Positions 1,444-19,536 of a stretch of DNA of 24,013 nucleotides are shown piece after piece (the stretch's first letter is position 1; the number at the start of each line of letters is the position of its first letter). The stretch comes from an uncultured Gammaproteobacteria bacterium (lineage in GTDB: Bacteria > Patescibacteriota > Patescibacteriia > UBA2196), in contig CAZDKR010000001.1 of the NCBI GenBank assembly GCA_964506375.1, forward strand, positions 1,672 to 25,684. The letters are read 5' to 3'. Made by a program: the position numbers and the translations under genes. The notes beneath the pieces were generated by a model. It did no database searches, was not told the DNA's origin, and saw nothing but the letters and a program-made list of their open reading frames with translations.

Positions 1444-4035
1444 ATGATTAATTTTCAAGAGTTGACCCAAAAATCAGCTGAGAGTTTGCAAAGCGCATTT
1501 GAGTTAGCGCAGGAAAAGAAAAATTCAGAGGTGACTGCCCATCACCTGCTTTTGGCCTTGCTTTTACAAAGCGAAACCGCAGTCACCCCCTTGTTTCAAA
1601 GAGTGGGAGTTTCTCCTGATGTATTAAAAAAAGAAATAGAGGATGAAATAAATAAAATGCCGACTTTAGCCTCTGTTTCTTTAGAACAGATTCGCCTTTC
1701 AGCAGAAGTTGATCAGATTTTTAATCAAGCAAAAAAAGAAGCCCACGGATTGGGTGACGAATATATCAGCACAGAGCATCTGTTGCTTGCTGTTTTAAAC
1801 ACCCAGAACAGCGCGCGGGAGCTTTTAGAAAGAGCCGGGGTTGACTATAAAAATGTTTTAGATAATATAGATAAAGTTCGCGGCAATATGAAAGTCACAG
1901 ATCAAAACCCAGAATCTAAATATAAAGTTTTGGAAAAATATGGCCAAAATTTTACTAAACTTGCTCGGGAAGGGAAGTTGGATCCGGTTATTGGCCGAGA
2001 TGAAGAAATTAGACGGGTTATGCAGATACTTTCCAGGCGCACTAAAAATAATCCAGTTTTAATTGGCGAACCGGGCGTGGGTAAAACCGCTATTGTGGAA
2101 GGCTTGGCTCAGCGCATCGTGGCTGGAGACGTGCCAGAAACTTTAAAGAATAAAGAAATTGTAGCCATTGAAATGAGTTCGCTTTTAGCCGGAGCCAAAT
2201 TTAGAGGAGAGTTTGAAGAGCGTTTAAAAGCAGTGCTCAAAGAAGTTGAGGCAGCCGAAGGAAAAATTATTTTATTTATTGACGAACTGCACACAGTAGT
2301 CGGGGCCGGGGCAGCCGAGGGCGCAATTGACGCGGCTAATATGTTTAAGCCTTTGCTTGCCCGAGGCAAACTCCACATGATTGGCGCCACTACTTTAAAT
2401 GAATATCGTGAACACATTGAAAAAGATGCGGCTTTAGAGAGAAGGTTCCAGCCAGTTTATATTGACGAGCCGTCAGTTGAGGATACAATTTCCATTTTGC
2501 GGGGCTTAAAAGAGAAATACGAAATTCACCATGGAGTAAAGATCACTGACGAAGCCTTAGTAGTGGCCGCGCGGCTTTCTGCCCGTTATATCACAGACCG
2601 TTTTTTGCCGGATAAGGCAGTTGATTTAATTGATGAAGCTACTTCTTCATTGAAGATGGAAATTGAAAGTTTGCCTTACGCGCTTGATCAAATTAAAAGA
2701 AAGATTAGGCAAAAAGAAATAGAGCGCGAGGCGTTAAAGAAAGATAAAAGCCAGGGCGCCAAGGAGCGCTTGGGCGAAGTGGAGAAAGAAATCGCCAATT
2801 TAAAGGAGCAGGAAAAATCTTTAGCCCAGGAATGGGAATATGAAAAGAAGTTAATTGAAAAAAGCAGGGAATATTCCAGTCAAATTGACGAGCTAAAAGT
2901 TCAGGAAGAACAGGCCGAACGCCAAGGAGAGTTGGAGAAAGTGGCCGAGATTAGATATGGCAAAATCCCGGAATTAGAAAAAAAGATTAAAGAAATTCAG
3001 GATAAGTTAAATAAAATACCTTCAGAAATTCGTCTTTTGCGGGAAGAAGTAAAAGCCGAAGACGTGGCTCGGGTGTTGGCCAAATGGACAGGCATTCCAG
3101 TGACTAGGTTATTAGAGAGTGAAAGCCAGAAATTAGCTCGTTTGGAATCAGAGCTAAAAAAGCGCGTAGTTGGCCAGGATGAGGCTGTTGAGGCGGTGGC
3201 TCGAGCTATTCGCCGCGCCAGATCAGGACTGGCTGCGCCTACAAGACCTTTAGGATCCTTTATATTTTTAGGGCCTACTGGGGTAGGCAAAACCGAGTTA
3301 GCCAAAGCTTTAGCCGCGGCTTTGTTTGATGACGAAAATGCAATGATTCGCATTGATATGAGCGAATATATGGAAGCTCATTCAGTAGCGCGTTTAATTG
3401 GAGCGCCGCCGGGTTATGTGGGTTTTGAAAAAGGCGGACAGTTAACTGAAAGGGTTAGGCGTCGGCCTTATTCAATAATTTTATTTGATGAGATTGAAAA
3501 AGCCCATCCTGAAGTCTTTAATGTCTTTTTGCAGATTTTGGATGAAGGCCACCTAACTGATGGCCAAGGCAGAAGAGTTAATTTTAAAAATACAGTTATT
3601 ATTATGACTTCTAATTTGGGGAGCGAAATTATTTACCAAGAAACAGGCAAGGACGAAGAAAAGATGCGAGACAAGGTTATGCAAATAGTTCAAAGGAGTT
3701 TTCGGCCAGAATTTTTGAATCGGATTGATAAAATTATTATTTTCCACCGTCTTGGACCTGAGCAAATGAAAACTATAGTTGATATTCAGCTTAATCAACT
3801 TAATCAGATATTGGCTGAAAAAAATATTAGTTTAGAAGTTGTGCCTGAAGTTAAGAAGTGGTTGGCGCAAGTTGGTTATGAGCCGACTTTTGGTGCTCGG
3901 CCCTTAAAGCGAGTGATTGAAGAGAAAATAATGGATGAATTGGCTCTCCAAATCATTGAAGGCAAGGTTAAAGAAGGGGATAAATTAATTGTGAAATTAA
4001 AAGGCAAAGATAAAATTGTTTTTGAAAGGAAATAA
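1444..4035 (+). CDS. clpB: ATP-dependent disaggregase ClpB
   Basis: 863 aa. N-domain, NBD1 ([15 protein letters not shown]), coiled-coil M domain (LKMEIES...AEIRYG), NBD2 ([20 protein letters not shown]). Confidence 0.97.
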
Positions 4036-5994: not shown

Positions 5995-6100
5995 AATACA
6001 ATAACCAAAAGATAAGAGATAAGGAGTAAGCAATTTCCAATAACCAAATAAAATTTCTTCTATTTTGCTATTGATTCTTGTATTTTGGTTATTAAGAACT

Positions 6101-7351
6101 ATGTCTTCTGACTTTAACATCAAAACCATAAAACCCAATGATGGGCTTAAGTACAAGACCCAGTTTAAAAAGAAACCGCGATTTAGAATTCGGGGGGCGG
6201 TGTTTTTTATTTTAATTATCTTTTTTCTGGTTTTATTCACTTATGTTTTGCCAAGTGTGACTGTAGTTGTTGTTCCAGAGACAAGAAAAATTGAAAAGGA
6301 ATTTGAAATTCAGTTGACAAGCGATGAATCCAAGGTTGATTTAAATAGAAATATTTTTCCAGCCCGCATTATTGAAGCGAGCGAGAAGGGCGAAGGAAGT
6401 TTTGAGGCGACTGGCGAGAAAGACATTGGGGACAAGGCAAGCGGTCAGGCAGTATTTTATAACCACACTGGCCGGTCTCAGCCTTTAACCACCCAAATAG
6501 ATTTAATTAATGATCAGGGCATAGCTTTTGCTGTCAAAGAGAATATAACTATTCCTCCTGCCAGGGTTGACGAAGATGGCAATATTGTTCCCGGCGAGAT
6601 TGTGGCTGAGATTGAAGCCAAAGAACCGGGCGAAAAGGGAAACGCGGGTCCGGGCAGGATTAACATTTCAGCCTTAGACATTGAAAGGCAAGAAAAGATT
6701 TATGGTGAAATTAGCCAGGGTTTAAGTGGCGGCAATTCTAAGATTGTGGTAGTTGTTTCCCAGGAAGATTTAGATAATGCCAAGGATGAATTGATAAGAG
6801 AGTTAGAACCAAAAGTTAAGGAAAAGTTAAAAAAGAAAGCCGGGGATGATATGTCAGTAATTGATAAACTGATAAATTTTGACGTTTCAGAAATTTCAAA
6901 ATCAATGGATGTGGATGCTGAAGTGAAAAATTTTGATATGAGTTTAAATTTAAAAGCTAAAGCCTTGGTTTATAACAATAAGGATCTAAGTTCATTTTTA
7001 AAAGACCAGATTTTAAAAGAATTACCAGCGGGGCAAACAATTGCAGAATCAGAATTTGGTCCAGAATCCCAAGCGCCTGGCAAGGGGTTGGAAGTTGAAG
7101 TTAGGAATTTTGATATCAATTTAGGCATGGCTGATTTAAAAATCAAAGCAGTTTTTCCTGTTTCAGAAAAGATTGATTTAGTCAAAATTAAGAGAAATAT
7201 TTTAGGCAAAAGGGAAAAGGAAGCCAGGAGATATATTTTATCATTGCCCAATGTCAAAGACGTGAAATTTATTTTTTCCTTGAGCTTAACTGATAAAATT
7301 CCGAAGTTTGAGAATAAGGTGAGGGTGAAATTGGGAGAAGTGATGAAATAA
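6101..7351 (+). CDS. Membrane-anchored protein with baseplate-J-like domain (CPR-type conserved hypothetical)
   Basis: ATG 6101 preferred over TTG 6065. Single TM segment (AVFFILIIFFLVLFTYVLPSVTVVVVP), ATGEKDIGDKASGQAVFYN, and AKEPGEKGN...I motifs recalled from this family. Confidence 0.6.
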   Translation: MSSDFNIKTIKPNDGLKYKTQFKKKPRFRIRGAVFFILIIFFLVLFTYVLPSVTVVVVPETRKIEKEFEIQLTSDESKVDLNRNIFPARIIEASEKGEGSFEATGEKDIGDKASGQAVFYNHTGRSQPLTTQIDLINDQGIAFAVKENITIPPARVDEDGNIVPGEIVAEIEAKEPGEKGNAGPGRINISALDIERQEKIYGEISQGLSGGNSKIVVVVSQEDLDNAKDELIRELEPKVKEKLKKKAGDDMSVIDKLINFDVSEISKSMDVDAEVKNFDMSLNLKAKALVYNNKDLSSFLKDQILKELPAGQTIAESEFGPESQAPGKGLEVEVRNFDINLGMADLKIKAVFPVSEKIDLVKIKRNILGKREKEARRYILSLPNVKDVKFIFSLSLTDKIPKFENKVRVKLGEVMK

Positions 7352-7656: not shown

Positions 7657-8010
7657 ATGTCAGAGGAACAGAAAAATAACCAAAATTTGGATAATAGCCG
7701 AAATGGCAGGGATAAGGTTGATAAAAGCGGTACTGATTTTGCGCAAAAGGATTTAAAAAAGATTGACCAAAAGGATGATTTTAGCAATTTTAAAGTTAAC
7801 AGAAAGGGCTTTATTGAAGTTGACGGCGAGGTAATAGAGACATTGCCAAGCATTACTTTTCGCGTTAGATTAGAGAATGACTATGAGATTTTAGCCCGTC
7901 TTTCTGGCAGGATGAGAATGAACAGGATAATGTTATTGCCAGGAGATAAAGTCAAAGTTGAAATAAGTCCATATGATTTGACCAAAGGGAGGATTACTTA
8001 TAGGTATTAA
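7657..8010 (+). CDS. infA: Translation initiation factor IF-1 with ~45-aa N-terminal extension
   Basis: [12 protein letters not shown]...FRVRLEN...[38 protein letters not shown]. Confidence 0.95.
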
Positions 8011-8215
8011 TAATCGCGGAACAGGAGTGAAGATAGCGTGTTTTTTCGTCATATTAGAATTTTCTAGCTTTGAACTGACTCTGGCTTTATGTCAAGACAA
8101 TGTTATGCCCGTGTTTGTATAGAAGATTTATCTAGTGAAAACACACATAAAAAACACAAAAAAGAGCGTAAAAGATAACACAAATTAGGTGCATAAAGCA
8201 CTTGTTTATAAAGAT

Positions 8216-8329
8216 ATGAAAGTTAAAGCCTCGGTTAAAAAAATTTGTAAAGATTGCAAAGTAGTTCGTCGTAAAAAACGGGTGGTTGTGGTATGCAAGA
8301 ATCCAAGGCATAAACAACGGCAAGGATAA
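8216..8329 (+). CDS. rpmJ: 50S ribosomal protein L36 (zinc-binding type); not in the ORF track
   Basis: [37 protein letters not shown], 37 aa. Confidence 0.97.
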
Positions 8330-8335
8330 TTATTT

Positions 8336-8725
8336 ATGGCAAGAATAGCTGGTGTCAATTTACCCAATGATAAAAGAATAGAAATAGGTCTAACCTATAT
8401 TTTTGGCATTGGCAGGAGCTTGTCAAATAAAATTTTAAAAGAAGTTGAAATTAATCCTGACACAAGGGTTAAAGATTTGTCTGAAGAACAGGTAAATAAA
8501 CTAAGACAAAAGATTGAGAAGGAATATAAAGTGGAAGGTGATTTGAAAAGAGAGATTATTGGCAATATAAAGAGGTTAAAAGAGATTGGCTCTTATCGTG
8601 GCTCTCGACATGCCAAGAACCTGCCTGTTAGGGGGCAACGGACAAGAAGGAATACCCGAACTGTAAGGGGCAATGTTAGGAGAACAATAGGCTCTGGTAG
8701 AAAACCAGCGGCGCAAAAAACATAA
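8336..8725 (+). CDS. rpsM: 30S ribosomal protein S13
   Basis: [10 protein letters not shown]...GLTYIFGIG...YRGSRH...[11 protein letters not shown]. Confidence 0.97.
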
Positions 8726-8916
8726 TATCTTTAATAGTTTATCTTGAATGGTGCTATGTTTGCAGGTAAGCCGGGGTGCTGCGGAAAAAGAAAAAGTTAA
8801 TTTTGGCATAAAGCCAGGAAAGGCGCTTCGCTTTGAAAATTAAAAATTAAAAAATTAAGGGAAATAAAAATTATAGAGAATTATATTGATATATTAATTT
8901 AATTGGTAAAGATAAT

Positions 8917-9567
8917 ATGGATAAAAATAATAAAAAAGCCCAAGAAGAATTAAGCGATAAGTCATCTGATGAAAAAGATGATAAGGTTAAGGCTGAAGAA
9001 AAAACAGAAGAAGTGAAAAGCAAGGATGAAAAGATTGCGATCACAGAGGACTCTGAGAAAGTGCAGGGAGTTCAGAAAAAATCTCAAAGTTCTCAGAGAG
9101 ATTCAGAGCCTTCAGTGGTTGCAGAGGAAACATCTAAAAAAGAGAATAGTAGCCAAGAGTTAAAAACCCAAACTGTTATAGTCAAAGGAAAAAAGAAGAA
9201 AAAGAGGATGCCGTTTTTGAGAGGTGGCAGGGGACAGGCGCATATAAAATCAACATATAACAATACGATTGTGACCCTTACTGATTTAAATGGCGCTGTT
9301 TTGGCTTGGGCTTCAGCAGGCAAGTGCGGTTTTAAAGGGCCGAAAAAGTCAACCCCTTACGCAGCCGGAGTTATTGTTAGATCACTCTCAGATAAAGTGA
9401 AAGAATTAGGCATTAAAGAATTAGATGTTTTTGTTAAAGGCGTGGGCACAGGGCGAGAGGCGGCTATTAGGGCTCTTGATTCTTGCGGTGTAAGGGTTGT
9501 TTCTATAAAAGATGTAACTCCTATACCTCATGGCGGCTGCAGGCCAAGGAAAAAGAGACGGGTTTAG
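8917..9567 (+). CDS. rpsK: 30S ribosomal protein S11 with ~95-aa charged N-terminal extension
   Basis: [16 protein letters not shown]...[18 protein letters not shown]...[12 protein letters not shown]. Confidence 0.95.
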
Positions 9568-9701
9568 AGGTTTTGCGTGAATTTTGATGCTGGCCTTGCC
9601 CGGACAGGTTTAGGCAGGCAGAATGTACCCGAATTTTTTAAAAGATTATCTAGAATTCGCATAAAGTTCGTGTGCAATTCAAATCAAAATTAGAATATTT
9701 T

Positions 9702-10334
9702 ATGGCTAAAAATCTTGATCCTAAATGCAAACAATGCCGACGGGCAGGCGAAAAGCTCTTTTTAAAAGGAGAGCGGTGTTTTAGTACCAAATGCGCTTTA
9801 ACCAAAAGAAGCTACCCGCCCGGAGTTCATGGCAGCAAGGGGCACCCTAGATTAACTGATTATGGAGTTCATTTGAGGGAAAAACAGAAATTAAGAAGAA
9901 TGTACGGGGTTTTAGAAAAACAATTGAGAAAGTATTTCAAAGAGGCGGCTAAAAGCAAGGGCGATACTGGTTTAAAACTGATAGAATTCTTAGAGCGTCG
10001 ATTTGATAATGTGATTTATAAATTAGGATTAACCACTTCAAGGGCTCAGGCTAAGCAGTTTATCAACCACGATTTGTTTTTAGTTAATAATAAAAAAATG
10101 AATATTCCATCTTACCGGGTTAAAGCAGGCGATGTGATAACCATAAGAAAAGAAAAAACAAAAAGCAAAGGAGTTTTGGCTGAAAATATTAAAAACACCA
10201 ACAAGAAAGAGGAAATTTCGTGGTTAACCTGGGATCCAAAAGAGCTTAAAGGTCAAGTAGTTAGTATTCCTAAAGATAAGGATCTGGATGTGGGCATTGA
10301 CACAAGATTGGTTGTTGAGTTTTATTCTAGGTAA
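9702..10334 (+). CDS. rpsD: 30S ribosomal protein S4 (zinc-ribbon type)
   Basis: ATG 9702 preferred. PKCKQCRR...KGERC...KC, YGVHLREKQKLRRMYG, LERRFDNVIYKLG. Confidence 0.96.
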   Translation: MAKNLDPKCKQCRRAGEKLFLKGERCFSTKCALTKRSYPPGVHGSKGHPRLTDYGVHLREKQKLRRMYGVLEKQLRKYFKEAAKSKGDTGLKLIEFLERRFDNVIYKLGLTTSRAQAKQFINHDLFLVNNKKMNIPSYRVKAGDVITIRKEKTKSKGVLAENIKNTNKKEEISWLTWDPKELKGQVVSIPKDKDLDVGIDTRLVVEFYSR

Positions 10335-10522
10335 TTTCTGTTGAAAGATTAAAGCATTCAAACTATTCTGAACTGCAAGATTTTGTTTAATGTTTTGCAA
10401 CTTGAAATTAAATAAAAAATATTAAAATTAAAAATTAAATCCCGGCCCTTGGCAGGTTTTCCGTTAAGCCTTCTGTACTTATAACGGGATTCCTTGTTTT
10501 GCTTGGGATAAAATTTATCTAT

Positions 10523-11398
10523 ATGCAACCGATTTCTATTGCTCAAAAAAAGGAATTTAAACAAGAATCTCCTAATAAAGGTCAATTTATCATTGAGCCT
10601 CTTTATCCGGGTTATGGCTTAACTTTGGGCAATGCTTTAAGGAGAGTCCTGTTGTCTTCTTTAGAAGGGGTGGCTATTACTTCAGTCAGGATTAAGGGGG
10701 TAGACCATGAATTTTCTGCTATTGACGGAATTAAAGAGGACGTGGTTGACATTATTTTAAATTTAAAGCAGGTAAGGTTTGAAGTCAGCGGCGAATTTGA
10801 GGAGCCAATTAAGTTGGAGTTAAATGCCAAAGGTGAAAAAGAGGTTAAGGCAGGAGATTTTAAAAAAGTGGCAGGAGTAAAAATTGCCAATCCAGATTTA
10901 TTGATTGCCACCCTAACTGATCCTCAGGCGCAATTAGAGTTAGAGGCTTGGATAGAAAGAGGACGTGGTTACTTGCCAACTGAAATGATGGCTACCAGAT
11001 CGCCAGAAGGCGGAATTGGCTCGGCAAGAGAAAAAGAAATTGGAGTGATTGATATTGACGCTATTTTTTCTCCGATTAAAAAAGTGGCCATTAATACTGA
11101 AAATGTCCGGGTCGGGGAGATGACTAACTGGGACCGCTTAATTTTGGAATTAGAGACTGATGGCACGATTACTCCTGAAGAAGCTCTTAAAAAGTCAGCC
11201 CAAATTTTAGTGGATCAATTTTCATTCTTTTTAGAGAAAAAGAAGGCAGAGAAGAAAAAAGAGGAAGTTAAGAAAGAAGAGAAAGTGACGGATGAAAAAG
11301 ACAAGGAAAAAGATGAGGATAAGGAAAGCAAAAAGGAAGAGGAAAAAACAGGAGAGAAGCCTAGAAAAAGAGGAAGGCCAAAAAAAGAGGAGAAATAA
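10523..11398 (+). CDS. rpoA: RNA polymerase alpha subunit; alpha-CTD replaced by a charged tail
   Basis: ATG 10523 preferred. IEPLYPGYGLTLGNALRRVLLSS, HEFSAIDGIKED, IDAIFSPI, LETDGTITP. Confidence 0.96.
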   Translation: MQPISIAQKKEFKQESPNKGQFIIEPLYPGYGLTLGNALRRVLLSSLEGVAITSVRIKGVDHEFSAIDGIKEDVVDIILNLKQVRFEVSGEFEEPIKLELNAKGEKEVKAGDFKKVAGVKIANPDLLIATLTDPQAQLELEAWIERGRGYLPTEMMATRSPEGGIGSAREKEIGVIDIDAIFSPIKKVAINTENVRVGEMTNWDRLILELETDGTITPEEALKKSAQILVDQFSFFLEKKKAEKKKEEVKKEEKVTDEKDKEKDEDKESKKEEEKTGEKPRKRGRPKKEEK

Positions 11399-11495
11399 GA
11401 AATTGCAAATTAAGCGAAAGTTTTTACATTAAGGCACAAAAACATTAAAACGTTCAGGTAAATTTTGTTTTTTGTTTTAATGTTCTGCGTTTTTT

Positions 11496-11846
11496 ATGCG
11501 TCACCAGAAAACTAAAAAAACATTAGGAAGGAAAACAGGGTCAAGAAAGGCATTGATTAAAAATTTGGCCAGTTCTTTGATTTTGTATGAAAAAATAAAG
11601 ACAACAGAAGCTAAGGCCAAGATGATTAAACCATTGGTGGAGAAAATGGTGACGAGAGCTAAAAGCGACACTTTGCATAATCGGCGTGAGATAATGAAAA
11701 AAATACCTGCCAAAAACGTAGTTAGAAAACTATTTGAAGTCTTGGGTCCAAAGTATAAAAAAAGAAAAGGCGGATACCTCCGAATTGTTAGGTTGGGAGA
11801 GAGAAAAGGGGATGGGGCTAAGATGGTGGTGATAGAGTTTGTGTGA
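11496..11846 (+). CDS. rplQ: 50S ribosomal protein L17
   Basis: MRHQK...LGRK...EKIKTTEAKAK...RKGGYLRIVRLGERKGDGA. Confidence 0.97.
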   Translation: MRHQKTKKTLGRKTGSRKALIKNLASSLILYEKIKTTEAKAKMIKPLVEKMVTRAKSDTLHNRREIMKKIPAKNVVRKLFEVLGPKYKKRKGGYLRIVRLGERKGDGAKMVVIEFV

Positions 11847-11930
11847 TGTTTATAGACTTTATCCCTTACACTTATTATTTAATTTTAATTTCAAATTTTC
11901 AATCCTGAGCGCTTGGGAAAAACAATATTT

Positions 11931-12278
11931 ATGCAACGTAAAGTACATACAATTGATGCGAGCGGAAAAGTATTGGGCAGGCTTGCAACCCAGGTGGCTT
12001 TGTTATTGCGTGGTAAAAATAAACCAACCTTTAGCCCCCATCTTGATGAAGGAGATGAAGTGGTTATTAAAAATGTTGACAAAATGAAATTTACTGGAAA
12101 GAAGCTGGGGCAAAAAGTCTACAAGCATCACACTGGCTATGTGGGGCATTTAAAGATCATTAGTATGAGCGATGCTTACAAAAAGAACCCACAACAGGTT
12201 TTTAAAAGGGCGGTTTATAATATGTTGCCAAAAAACAAGTTGCGTAGTAAAATGATGAAAAGATTAAAGTTTGAGTGA
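11931..12278 (+). CDS. rplM: 50S ribosomal protein L13 (short C-terminus)
   Basis: ATG 11931. IDASGKVLGRLATQVALLLRGKNKP.F.PH.D.GD.V. Confidence 0.95.
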   Translation: MQRKVHTIDASGKVLGRLATQVALLLRGKNKPTFSPHLDEGDEVVIKNVDKMKFTGKKLGQKVYKHHTGYVGHLKIISMSDAYKKNPQQVFKRAVYNMLPKNKLRSKMMKRLKFE

Positions 12279-12280
12279 AC

Positions 12281-12413
12281 ATGCGAATGTGAATATAATA
12301 CAATAAAACTTTATCTATTATATGTGGATGGTTTAAATATTTGGATGGTTTAAAAGCAAAGCGCTTTGCATTTAAACGCATTTAAACCACATTTATCTGA
12401 CCAGTATTCGCAT
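12281..12413. repeat. Nested inverted repeats in the rplM-rpsI spacer
   Basis: ATGCGAAT (12281-12288)/ATTCGCAT (12406-12413). TGGATGGTTTAAA occurs twice, opposed by two ATTTAAAC. Central perfect palindrome GCAAAGCGCTTTGC (12356-12369). Confidence 0.7.
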
Positions 12414-12419
12414 ACAATT

Positions 12420-12920
12420 ATGCCTAAAAAAGACATAAAAAAAGAAGATAAATCTGTAACAAAAACCACAAAAAAGCAAGTGGCCGCTCTTGGAGTTAAA
12501 GAAGAAAAAGAAGAAGAGAGTAAGAAAATAGATGACTTTATTAGGGCTGTCGGTCGTCGTAAAAGCGCGGCAGCTAGAGTGCGCCTTTATCCAAACGGAA
12601 GTGGAAAAATAGAAATTAATGGCAAGGATTATAAACAATATTTTCCGCTTTTTGAGTTAAATAAAAAAATAACCCTGCCGTTAAAGTTAGTGGGCAGGAG
12701 AAATGATTTTAACTTTACAATTAAAGTAGCTGGTGGTGGACCTGTTGGGCAAGCTGATGCCTGTTCTCATGGAATTACCAGGGCATTGATTAAATTTAAT
12801 GAAGATTATAAAAAAACTCTGCGCGCTGCTGGTTTTGTGACCCGCGACCCAAGAGTCAAAGAAAGAAAAAAATATGGTTTGAAAAAAGCCAGACGCGCCC
12901 CGCAGTGGCAGAAGAGGTAA
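12420..12920 (+). CDS. rpsI: 30S ribosomal protein S9 with N-terminal extension
   Basis: ATG 12420 preferred. AVGRRKSAAARVRL, VAGGGPVGQA, RDPRVKERKKYGLKKARRAPQWQKR. Confidence 0.96.
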   Translation: MPKKDIKKEDKSVTKTTKKQVAALGVKEEKEEESKKIDDFIRAVGRRKSAAARVRLYPNGSGKIEINGKDYKQYFPLFELNKKITLPLKLVGRRNDFNFTIKVAGGGPVGQADACSHGITRALIKFNEDYKKTLRAAGFVTRDPRVKERKKYGLKKARRAPQWQKR

Positions 12921-12971: not shown

Positions 12972-13013
12972 CATTATGTCAATTTATCACGATCGTAGCA
13001 AAATGACATAATG
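12972..13013. repeat. Imperfect 42-bp palindrome centred on CGATCG, downstream of the PaaX-like gene
   Basis: CATTATGTCAATTTATCACGA|TCGTAGCAAAATGACATAATG; 17 of 21 arm positions pair. Confidence 0.9.
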
Positions 13014-13073
13014 ACATAATGAAGTAATGAAGTAATGAAGCAGTGAAGCAATGAAGCAGTGAAGCAATGAAGC
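13002..13073 (+). repeat. Tandem array of nine 8-nt units
   Basis: AATGACAT x2, AATGAAGT x2, then AATGAAGC/AGTGAAGC alternating x5. Confidence 0.95.
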
Positions 13074-13099
13074 TTGGGTGGTTTTGATATTTTAAATTT

Positions 13100-13636
13100 T
13101 TATTTTAACCCAAAAATTTTTTTTAGATTTGTTTCAAAGCTGACATGGTCCGCAATTATATAATTAAACCATTTACTTTCTTTTGCACTTGGAATCAAGG
13201 TATAAATATATTCAATTGCGTCATAAGGGTAAATCCAAACGCTTTTCTGCAAGCGATAAAAGCCGATTTCTTTTAATATTTTTCTTAGATTATCTCTAAA
13301 AACTCTTTTATTTTCAGGTATGTCAAAAATTAGAATACGCCATTTACCGTCCCACTCTTTTTTATTCTTCGCAGCCCTTTCAATAATAATTTTTTTTATA
13401 AGCTCATAACCTTTAGGGGTTAATTTATAAAGGATTTTTTTGTCTATTTCAGTATTTTTTAAATACCCCCTTCTTTTTAAATTGGCCAGCGTGTAATATG
13501 GAATAGGTTTTGTGCCACCAACCAAAGATTTTATATAGTCATAAGGATTTATGGCATAAGTTATTATTTTATTATTTCCATCAATAAAAGCTTCAAGTAA
13601 TTTTTTTGTTTTCTTGTTTAAGTTAAGAGATTTCAT
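13100..13636 (-). CDS. PaaX-like protein (winged helix + Cas2-like ferredoxin-fold domain), not CRISPR-linked here
   Basis: LANLKRRGYL...YKLTPKG (wHTH wing) and WDGKWRILIFDIPE..R..RD.LR..L...GF..LQKSVW. Start at 13636 is preferred because the 13681 ATG lies in the palindrome. Confidence 0.8.
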   Translation of the reverse strand: MKSLNLNKKTKKLLEAFIDGNNKIITYAINPYDYIKSLVGGTKPIPYYTLANLKRRGYLKNTEIDKKILYKLTPKGYELIKKIIIERAAKNKKEWDGKWRILIFDIPENKRVFRDNLRKILKEIGFYRLQKSVWIYPYDAIEYIYTLIPSAKESKWFNYIIADHVSFETNLKKIFGLK

Positions 13637-13648
13637 ATGGTTAGTGTT

Positions 13649-13680
13649 TGTCATTTTGCTACGATCGTAGCAAAATGACA
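13649..13680. repeat. Perfect 32-bp palindrome centred on CGATCG, upstream of the PaaX-like gene
   Basis: TGTCATTTTGCTACGA|TCGTAGCAAAATGACA. Confidence 0.95.
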
Positions 13681-13697
13681 TAATGGAAATTTAGAAT

Positions 13698-15155
13698 TTA
13701 TTTTGAGCTCAGGTGGCTTAGTTCTTCTTTTACCACTTTTCTGTCATCCCAAGGAATTTTTTTGCCGTTTTTAACGCAGATAGCCTGTTCCGCGCCTTTG
13801 CCTGTAATTAGAATCAAGTCATTTTTTTTAGCTAACTTTAGCGCTTTTCTAATGGCTTCGCGTCGGTCTAATATTTTTAAAATTTGGGTTTCTGATTTTT
13901 GATTTGCAGTTTTTGGTCTTTGATTTTTAATTTCTTCAGCCCCAGCTGCTACCTCATCAATAATTTTCATTGGCTCTTCATCATAAGGATCTTCGTTAGT
14001 TACAATAACAATGTCTGCGTTTTTAGCAGCTATTTGGCCTAAAATTGGTCTTCTTGCCTTGTCTCTGCCTCCACCAGCTGAACCAAGAATATGGATAATT
14101 TTATTATGATCAATGCTTTTGACGGCTTCATACAACTTTTCTAATGCCCTGGGTTCAAACGCGTAATCAACAATGATATTTACGCCCAAGTTGTCCTGAG
14201 CGTCCTGAATAAATTCTAATCGGCCTGGCAGTGGTTTCAGGTTTGCTACTGCCATTTTTATTTTTTCCCAATTAACGCCTAAAATTTTAGCAACTGAAAT
14301 TCCGGCTAAGACATTGTAAATATTGTAGTTACCAAGCAAAGGAGTTGTGAATAACGAACCCGCATCTGCCAAAGCTGCGGCGGACAGGTTATGAATTATG
14401 AACTTTATTTTTCCATTTTCATTTTTCACGTCACCTGCTTTTATTGTTTCAAAACCATTTCCATAATTCTTGGTTTCTAATTCATAATTTACCCCAAACC
14501 CAATTTTTTTATCAGCTTTAAAATTCAGAAAATAACCAGCATATTCATCATCTAAATTAACAATAATAGTCTTTTTAATAAATTTTCCTAATTTTTTAAT
14601 TTTTTGAACTTGTCTCAATTTTTTAACATCTTTATGTTTAGAGTGAGACAGGTATTTAAAAAGTTTTCCCTTGGCTTTTTTATAATTTTCAAATCCGCCG
14701 TGGGCTTCTATGTGTTCAGGATACAAATTAGTAAAAACTAAAATATCATAATTGATACCTATATGCCTATATTGTTCAATACCTTGGGAAGAAGTTTCAA
14801 TAATGGCAATTTCGCAATTTTTTTTGACCATTTGTTTTAATAATTTTTGCGTTTGAAAACGGCCAAGCATGGTCATTTTTTTATCATTTAACCATTCATA
14901 ATTGCCAATTTTAAAAAGGGTAGTAGTGGTCATGCCGACTTTAAAGCCAGCTTGTTCCAAAATTTGGGCGATAAAATAACAAGTTGAAGATTTGCCAGCA
15001 GTGCCAGTTATACCAATAATTATCATCTTGTTTGACGGATAGCCATAAATAAAAGCGCTTATCTTAGCCAAAAGCCAATGGTAAAACGGCTGTAAAAGTT
15101 TGAACAGTTTTTTAGGGATGAGCTTTTTAATTATGTTTAATAACTGATCTAACAT
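13698..15155 (-). CDS. murE: Mur ligase, most like MurE (UDP-N-acetylmuramyl-tripeptide synthetase)
   Basis: IGITGTAGKSST, IETSSQG, FTNLYPEHIEAHG, N.DD, PGRLE, IVDYA, GGGRDKARRP..G, VTNEDPYDE, GKGAE, WDDR. Confidence 0.88.
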   Translation of the reverse strand: MLDQLLNIIKKLIPKKLFKLLQPFYHWLLAKISAFIYGYPSNKMIIIGITGTAGKSSTCYFIAQILEQAGFKVGMTTTTLFKIGNYEWLNDKKMTMLGRFQTQKLLKQMVKKNCEIAIIETSSQGIEQYRHIGINYDILVFTNLYPEHIEAHGGFENYKKAKGKLFKYLSHSKHKDVKKLRQVQKIKKLGKFIKKTIIVNLDDEYAGYFLNFKADKKIGFGVNYELETKNYGNGFETIKAGDVKNENGKIKFIIHNLSAAALADAGSLFTTPLLGNYNIYNVLAGISVAKILGVNWEKIKMAVANLKPLPGRLEFIQDAQDNLGVNIIVDYAFEPRALEKLYEAVKSIDHNKIIHILGSAGGGRDKARRPILGQIAAKNADIVIVTNEDPYDEEPMKIIDEVAAGAEEIKNQRPKTANQKSETQILKILDRREAIRKALKLAKKNDLILITGKGAEQAICVKNGKKIPWDDRKVVKEELSHLSSK

Positions 15156-19228: not shown

Positions 19229-19268
19229 TTACTTACTATATATTGCGATCGCAATATATAGTAAGTAA
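19229..19268. repeat. Perfect 40-bp palindrome centred on CGATCG
   Basis: TTACTTACTATATATTGCGA|TCGCAATATATAGTAAGTAA. Confidence 0.95.
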
Positions 19269-19455
19269 ATGTGTAAGTAAAAAAGTTAAACGGGAATATG
19301 CGGCAAAATAAGGGGTTTTAAGAGTTTTTGTATTCATCTTTTGCTTCGCGTGCTTCGCGCTCGCTCCCTGCGTATAAGCGAAAGATGGACATAAAGCAAA
19401 ACCTCTAAAGGTTATTATTAACCAGAACCACAGGCATAAATCTGCGGCGCAGGGG

Positions 19456-19484
19456 TTTACATTAATGCCAATTAGTTATATGAT
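19456..19484 (+). promoter_or_regulatory. Probable sigma70 promoter
   Basis: TTTACA (19456-19461), 17 nt, TATGAT (19479-19484). Confidence 0.55.
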
Positions 19485-19536
19485 TAAGGTAAAGTTTGTA
19501 GCTTAATTTAAAATTAACTAATGATATTTTGCCTAT

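Follow-up and report, generated by a model that had tools for sequence, protein, structure and literature searches.

Of the described systems, the closest to the element treated here is PaaX, the phenylacetyl-CoA-responsive repressor of Escherichia coli and Pseudomonas (structure 8A39; Pfam domains PF07848, PF20803 and PF08223), in which a winged helix is followed by a Cas2-like dimerisation domain and which carries a WDGKW motif. In E. coli, PaaX recognises the 39-bp site TGATTC-N27-GAATCA and acts as a repressor of its own promoter (PMC9493321). A second point of reference is Cas2, a dimeric protein of ferredoxin-like fold with the motifs FD[IM]P, R..R, GF and QxSV[FWY]. Within a 24,013-nucleotide stretch of DNA of an ultra-small bacterium of the Patescibacteria (contig CAZDKR010000001.1, positions 1,672 to 25,684 of the forward strand; the whole of it is referred to as the window) we describe a gene whose product has traits of both, and which stands between two long palindromes at the junction of rpsI and murE. 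Its product shares the domain order and the WDGKW motif of PaaX, and its putative sites resemble the PaaX operator (~39-40 bp with inverted outer motifs); unlike PaaX, it has no C-terminal effector domain, is accompanied by no paa genes (the neighbours being rpsI, murE and other housekeeping genes), has sites on both sides of the gene that are palindromic over their whole length, and has kept the Cas2 Asp. Unlike Cas2, whose fold it shares, it is fused to a winged helix, and only its residues 99-134 match Cas2 models. We reason that the protein most likely recognises both palindromes as its cognate sites. The palindrome-bracketed layout recurs across relatives and is therefore a real (and apparently so far undescribed) feature of the protein family, and not that of a recently inserted mobile cassette.

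The features of the unit (12972-13685) and of its immediate neighbours are:

12420-12920, plus strand: rpsI (Pfam Ribosomal_S9, 2.6e-43), the last gene of a ribosomal/rpoA cluster.
12972-13013: downstream site, palindromic over 42 bp except for 4 mismatches, made of CATTATGTCAATTTATCACGA and, directly following, TCGTAGCAAAATGACATAATG.
13002-13073: 8-bp tandem array, ~9 units of AATGACAT decaying to AATGAAGC (Tandem Repeats Finder), present also in the 99% strain variant L001.
13100-13636, minus strand: PaaX-like gene, 178 amino acids, stop codon 13100-13102, start ATG 13636.
13649-13685: upstream site, in which TGTCATTTTGCTACGA and, directly following, TCGTAGCAAAATGACA form the perfect 32-bp palindrome (13649-13680); towards murE it is extended by CATAATG.
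13698-15155, minus strand: murE-type Mur ligase gene (Pfam Mur_ligase_M and Mur_ligase_C), which precedes the PaaX-like gene and is read in the same direction.

Read along the minus strand, the order is thus murE, palindrome, PaaX-like gene, 8-bp tandem array, palindrome and the 3' end of the convergent rpsI. A preliminary description of this DNA had reported an identical 25-nt repeat, a perfect 32-bp and an imperfect 42-bp palindrome, a single gene between them, rpsI and murE converging on the unit, and the lack of an integrase or transposase, all of which our analysis bears out. The repeat (ACGATCGTAGCAAAATGACATAATG) lies at 12989-13013 and 13661-13685, 672 nt apart from start to start, and is part of a longer match of 37 nt (12977-13013 and 13649-13685) that is 89% identical. 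Complementarity is 100% between the 16-nt arms of the 32-bp palindrome, which meet with zero spacer, and 81% between the 21-nt arms of the 42-bp one. One minus-strand gene lies between the two, and rpsI (12420-12920, plus) and murE (15155-13698, minus) point towards it. No Pfam recombinase or transposase domain was found among the scanned open reading frames (ORFs) of the window, i.e. those of at least 90 amino acids that lie outside longer ORFs (rplQ and rplM excepted, which were named by synteny). When up to 3 mismatches are allowed, the half-site TCGTAGCAAAATGACA has three matches in the window, none of them outside these two palindromes (0.31 expected by chance; 0 of 100 shuffles reach three), and the full 32-mer of the upstream site had no match in 100 shuffles. 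The alignment of 30 homologues sets the start codon at ATG 13636 and not at 13681, and therefore the upstream palindrome ends 12 nt before the start codon; its other end lies 13 nt past the murE stop codon. The downstream site is found 87 nt past the stop codon of the PaaX-like gene and 51 nt past that of rpsI. Considering that the upstream site is unchanged in L001, and that the downstream copy has different mismatches there, the downstream copy evolves faster. The 8-bp array begins within the downstream palindrome, in its outer arm, and extends toward the PaaX-like gene, and may represent either extra outer-arm motifs or simple slippage.

The proposal that the gene encodes a PaaX-type winged helix-turn-helix joined to a Cas2-like fold was confirmed by a clear Pfam match, a weak Cas2 match and structural matches. 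In the AlphaFold model (predicted local distance difference test score, pLDDT, of 87), a winged helix (residues ~8-72) is followed by a linker helix (74-90) and a Cas2-like domain (99-175). The latter matches PF20803 (PaaX_M) at 78.8 bits (cut-off 24; 3.4e-22) over residues 108-186 of the 193-amino acid ORF, while PF07848 gave no Pfam match in the protein. The NCBIfam cas2 model TIGR01573 matches in part (32.2 bits versus a cut-off of 24.5, over the 36 residues 99-134) and the PADLOC Cas2 models match at 2.8e-8, whereas the PaaX equivalog model TIGR02277 stays far below its cut-off (45.2 versus 264.55 bits). Within the PDB, the best match of the whole protein in both fold (Foldseek) and sequence is E. 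coli PaaX (8A39), with the PaaX-like 3KFW and 3L09 also among the best solved relatives; the N-terminal domain alone matches TubR, AspA and MarR, and the C-terminal domain matches Streptococcus pyogenes Cas2, with 5ZYF as the Foldseek match for the Cas2 fold. The PaaX C-terminal effector domain (PF08223) is absent, as the protein ends at residue 178, directly after the Cas2-like domain, and this domain was carried by only 2 of 117 matches from a word search. The gene appears to encode a minimal PaaX-family protein, specific to Patescibacteria and predicted to bind DNA. A paper on TTHA0973 deals with a TetR-type regulator and was set aside as irrelevant.

The generality of the bracket was assessed in 81 non-redundant Patescibacteria loci (607 kb), in which it is a family rule and not a local accident. 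The density of palindromes was 1.94/kb in the flanks of the family genes versus 0.096/kb elsewhere (a ~20-fold difference). Exact words of at least 12 nt common to the upstream and downstream flanks were found for 53 of the 79 family genes versus 11 of 203 control ORFs, and words of at least 14 nt for 38/79 versus 2/203. The median palindrome is 40 bp long, with a median gap of 21 nt to the first in-frame ATG and of 20.5 nt from the stop codon, and the centre-to-centre spacing of the pairs is mostly 600-720 bp. An independently fetched locus (L212) has perfect palindromes of 48 bp and 34 bp around its family gene. Random metagenome DNA yielded three such palindromes in 740 kb, and four murE loci that lack a family gene yielded none in 37 kb. 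Since the presence of the downstream site is independent of the orientation of the next gene (18 of 34 convergent versus 18 of 41 co-directional cases), this site belongs to the family gene, and a role as operator of the next gene is ruled out. The idea that the palindromes have nothing to do with the gene, being either bidirectional terminators of a generic kind or chance repeats, is hardly tenable and already contradicted: although they lie between convergent or tandem genes, and an ordinary hairpin terminator occupies the empty murE-rpsI slot of one relative (L091), they are enriched 20-fold at family genes and rare in random metagenome DNA, and their arms are locus-specific, common to both flanks and co-vary with the protein. 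Terminators were also rejected on account of the missing T-run after the palindromes.

From the centre outward, the sites consist of a central hexamer of the form C-N-R-Y-N-G (CTATAG, CGATCG, CGGTCG/CGACCG, CGGCCG or CATATG), a variable stretch and, ~12-20 nt from the centre, the outer motifs. The centre appears to be genome-specific (CGATCG in the window and in the metagenome-assembled genome, MAG, JAQTPI01; CTATAG in CAYJSB01). Winged-helix identity was correlated with outer-arm identity (Mantel r = 0.33, with 0 of 2000 permutations as high), in contrast to the central hexamer, for which no correlation was registered (Mantel r = 0.08, p = 0.08). Three loci from different MAGs (L020, L024 and L034), with winged helices that are 63-69% identical, have an identical outer 11-mer (ACTTGTTTATA) and three different centres. 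In its geometry the family site agrees with the E. coli PaaX operator.

The reading that fits best is the modest one of the preliminary description, i.e. an autoregulated gene with operators at both ends, as it accords with the layout in the ortholog and the family, with the co-variation of the arms, and with what is established for E. coli PaaX. To self-repression of this kind, with operators at both ends that act by looping or as roadblocks, we lend about even credence. The protein would dimerise through its Cas2-like domain, so that its two winged helices could read the outer arms of a palindrome, ~30 bp apart, with the Cas2-like dimer placed over the central hexamer. Bound to the upstream site (12 nt before the start codon), it would block RNA polymerase and turn off its own gene. 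The downstream site may serve as a second operator that cooperates through a loop of the ~670-bp gene, or alternatively as a roadblock that would keep both read-through from murE and the converging transcript of rpsI out of the gene.

Several observations weigh against a self-repressor of this simple kind, and are considered here together with the alternatives on which they bear. There is no promoter asymmetry, as TTG and TAnnnT are equally frequent in all four arm sets. A promoter logic (TTG at -35 and TAnnnT in the arms) was rejected, since it separates neither upstream from downstream sites nor left from right arms; in the window, the palindromes do contain promoter-like matches (TTGCTA-17-CATAAT, consensus scan), but these are directed away from the PaaX-like gene. 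Strong palindromes were found downstream only at 18 loci, upstream only at 16 and on both sides at 20, whereas an autorepressor needs only the upstream site. The two flank copies differ at mirror positions and yet stay perfect (42 compensated versus 33 one-sided changes at 25 loci, a count that is biased because the scan selected for palindromes), and at L009 the outer arms are wholly different, the two sites sharing only TCACGATCGTGA while both are perfect over 40-48 bp. Such mirror changes suggest selection, or a mutational process, that acts on intrastrand pairing beyond the protein contacts alone. Among known mutational processes, template switching at quasi-palindromes can make and keep perfect palindromes, and can produce compensated changes without selection. 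A hairpin or cruciform role for the palindromes is equally conceivable.

These pairing data bear on the possibility that the palindromes act as mRNA hairpins at the 5' and 3' ends (for processing, stability or translation), with the protein as an autoregulator that binds or cuts RNA through its Cas2/VapD-like domain. The compensated changes keep each copy fully paired, and G:T mismatches on the sense strand exceed A:C ones (29 versus 14), a further point that sits poorly with simple self-repression. The upstream palindrome lies where the 5' untranslated region and the ribosome-binding site are expected, and the downstream one just past the stop codon; when the complete transcript is folded, the 5' copy pairs with the 3' copy (z-score -2.7), and some Cas2 and VapD proteins are reported to be RNases. 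However, the homology is to a DNA-binding repressor with an equally long site, outer arms and winged helix vary together in the way that recognition of a duplex predicts, most downstream palindromes lack a following U-tract, orphan sites (see below) occur in places that need no co-transcription with a particular gene, and the compensated changes could stem from template switching. We thus regard a function at the RNA level as very unlikely.

The Cas2-like domain raises a further objection to the self-repressor. Its residues D105, R114, Q130 and S132, which we take to be Cas2 hallmark motifs, are invariant in 198 of 198 members, and the Asp of FD(I/V)P, kept by the family, is lost in E. coli PaaX, which hints at more than a scaffold role. 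The protein could then be an active Cas2-like nuclease, guided by the winged helices and with an active site on the dyad axis over the palindrome centre, the unit being a selfish or defence-like module and not a regulator. This would be in line with the N-terminal Cas2 motif that scores above the NCBIfam cut-off, with the PADLOC matches, and with centres that look like restriction-site hexamers (all four CGATCG of the window are palindrome centres). Nevertheless, the nuclease activity of Cas2 is dispensable in CRISPR adaptation, and so the conserved motifs may be structural; moreover, the central hexamer shows no co-variation with the protein, and intact sites persist beside the gene over long evolutionary times. 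A nuclease therefore seems to us a distinctly improbable reading of the protein.

The remaining objections to the self-repressor mostly concern sites that stand apart from family genes. Orphan palindromes of the same type number nine in 510 kb (0.1 expected), all of them intergenic. At L045 (7143-7894), a RelB antitoxin and YafQ toxin pair lies between two palindromes of the same architecture, 713 bp apart and with the centre AGCTATAGCT, 3 kb from the PaaX-like gene of that locus, whose own site has different arms. Same-type sites bracket a sortase cluster in L016, and in L043 (640-2560) a gene for a small membrane protein of 131-133 amino acids is present in three tandem copies, of which two are identical; the same palindromic site stands after each copy, in an array with a 596-bp period directly upstream of the PaaX-like gene (layout: three times site-gene, then site, PaaX-like gene and site). 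Asymmetric centres are flipped between copies in 3 of 7 cases (L029, L061 and L075). All this could be accommodated if the palindrome pair delimited a cassette, ancient or rarely active, for which palindromes are the points of insertion, excision or duplication, with the PaaX-like protein as the site-binding factor and possibly a nuclease. To the same effect, the bracket is tight throughout the family, the Cas2 Asp is invariant, and paralogs that are 73% identical occur in one genome in different contexts, each with its own palindrome pair.

The history of the locus speaks against such a cassette, which we deem unlikely. An ortholog (P0003, 64% identical) occupies the same murE-rpsI slot in several samples and has two palindromes, in which the core CTACGATCGTAG is kept and the arms are altered. 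Because its divergence equals that of the neighbouring proteins (64% versus 49-76% identity to the ortholog locus), the unit was inherited together with its surroundings, i.e. the unit at the murE-rpsI locus is old and vertically inherited. The content of the junction varies among relatives at ~60-67% identity, as a slot with exchangeable cargo would have it:

L088: PspC and DUF1294 genes plus a 70-amino acid gene.
L089: NYN-domain gene.
L090: rearranged.
L091: empty.

The preliminary description had proposed looking here for an empty site with a single palindrome. The only empty slot found, that of L091, contains a GC-rich hairpin and no family-type palindrome, in a locus that is about as close to the ortholog locus L002 as the window is (67.0% versus 67.5%). 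Exact copies of two other family proteins (P0059 and P0076) were each found in one context across at least six samples, no identical multi-copy elements were found, and a scan of IMG/VR returned no relatives in viral contigs. A metagenome scan with the 16-mer TGTCATTTTRCTACGA gave at least 120 single chance matches, none of them palindromic among the matches listed. The window has no recombinase (Pfam scan), and the family has neither a His-hydrophobic-His (HUH) motif nor an invariant Tyr (position 138 being Tyr or Phe). Insertion or excision at the palindrome centre, as put forward earlier, is thus unsupported at this locus. Of the findings that had been named as fatal to it (relatives with no downstream copy, paralogs with an upstream site only, no empty sites), not all were made: family-type empty sites are indeed missing from this junction, but relatives and paralogs do have a downstream copy, and single orphan palindromes exist elsewhere, so that members of the family may once have behaved like cassettes.

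Besides those of the unit, the window has three further palindromes of this type, none of which adjoins a family gene:

829-866: imperfect palindrome, centre CGGTCG.
883-922: imperfect palindrome, centre CGATCG.
19229-19268: perfect 40-bp palindrome, TTACTTACTATATATTGCGA and, directly following, TCGCAATATATAGTAAGTAA, with the CGATCG centre of the unit and different arms.

The first two form a pair with common outer arms (TACGGAT...ATCCGTA) and no gene in between, placed in a 720-bp spacer that extends from a fragment of a type IV secretion system coupling-protein gene (10-720) to clpB (1444-4035). The third lies 20 nt past the truB stop codon, with no family gene alongside. A remnant of a family gene beside the orphans was sought by a 6-frame scan with a hidden Markov model and rejected: none was found near 19229-19268, the best value (E 0.005, from a 207-amino acid helix-turn-helix gene) is at the level of any winged helix-turn-helix, and a match at 673-882 is non-significant (E 0.07). 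Rfam recovered only a tRNA-Arg in the window, and no RNA family over the palindromes or the 19270-19536 spacer. The palindrome at 19229-19268 is followed by a non-coding stretch of ~270 bp in which short GC-rich repeats occur (TGCTTCGCG twice, 19342-19359); the gap between truB and the next gene is only ~30 bp in L002. Avoidance of restriction sites, considered as a source of the CGATCG centre, was dropped, as the window is too small to tell (4 versus 1.1 expected). The tetranucleotide TCGA is scarce in the window (5 versus 47.5 expected from dinucleotide content; GATC 43 versus 47 expected), and its depletion may reflect restriction pressure of TaqI type.

The rplM-rpsI spacer (12320-12377) contains a 17-bp tandem duplication (ATATGTGGATGGTTTAA twice) and a 30-bp palindrome (GTTTAAAAGCAAAGCGCTTTGCATTTAAAC), which has an AGCGCT centre and is of a different type from the sites of the unit. 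Several translation and transcription proteins encoded in 7657-12920 have long extra segments: IF-1 is 117 amino acids long with ~52 extra N-terminal residues, S11 has 216 amino acids with ~105 extra N-terminal residues, the N-terminus of S9 is Lys/Glu-rich, and RpoA has a Lys/Glu-rich C-terminal tail. A 428-amino acid ORF (6065-7351) without a Pfam match stands next to alaS, as does its counterpart in the ortholog locus (409 amino acids, likewise without a Pfam match).

The family comprises 7,027 clusters at 50% identity (E <=0.001), or 4,967 at E <=1e-10; the retrieved loci derive mostly from Patescibacteria-type MAGs (a few records have other taxon labels), several of which hold two or three paralogs. 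Public records call some members 'phenylacetic acid degradation operon negative regulatory protein' and others 'CRISPR-associated endonuclease Cas2'. Both names are ill-suited to a winged-helix/Cas2-like protein, as there are no cas or paa genes in the flanks examined, and the NCBI 'Cas2' label is an over-annotation. In the literature searched, no paper connected palindromes of this kind with PaaX or Cas2-like proteins in Patescibacteria. This group accounts for much of the diversity of bacteria, and its tiny genomes have few recognisable regulators, among which this family may be the main specific DNA-binding one. With two putative cognate palindromes per gene, and outer arms that track the winged helix, it would thus offer a ready-made protein-to-site code, and its sites are concrete targets for footprinting and binding assays. 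Some features are left unexplained by self-repression and suggest that the system may have a wider role: palindromy without sequence conservation, a genome-specific hexamer, invariant Cas2 residues, and sites around toxin-antitoxin and sortase modules.

A comparison with other known systems sets the unit apart from each. TubR and AspA are centromere-binding proteins that bind palindromic or repeated sites beside their own genes; their fold is matched by the N-terminal winged helix of the family, which differs from them in having no partition NTPase partner nearby and in its chromosomal housekeeping context. Modules without a recombinase of their own, held between recombination sites or hairpins, are known as integron cassettes (attC), as the pdif modules of Acinetobacter, and from REP/RAYT or IS200 ends. 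With these the family shares ~0.7-kb units between palindromic sites, variable sequence on a common architecture and, once (L045), a toxin-antitoxin cargo; unlike them, the unit has no integrase, Xer-type arms or HUH transposase, and is stable and vertically inherited. Taken singly, integron cassettes have imperfect attC sites, unlike the zero-spacer perfect palindromes of the family, and no tyrosine recombinase domain occurs in the window (Pfam). In Xer/dif modules the recombinase-binding arms (~11 bp, around a 6-bp centre) are conserved genome-wide, whereas in JAQTPI01 only a 12-bp core is shared and the arms differ, and the same holds for the genome of the window. As for IS200/IS605 and REP/RAYT, the family lacks the HUH/Tyr motif and exact copies of its proteins occur in one context only.

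The remaining comparison is with CRISPR adaptation, in which a repeat about as long is duplicated upon insertion, so that one copy flanks the insert on either side. The window has no Cas1 domain and no CRISPR repeat array, and in related loci it is housekeeping genes that were called as neighbours. It is conceivable, although we give it little credence, that the family is a catalytically competent Cas2-like enzyme which, guided by its winged helices, cuts or bridges at the palindrome centre (as duplex or cruciform), and thereby creates and moves palindrome-bracketed cassettes that would include its own gene, toxin-antitoxin modules and surface-protein clusters. If so, the duplication of a ~40-bp repeat flanking the insert would make it a Cas1-free relative of CRISPR spacer integration, with a bearing on the origin of Cas2.

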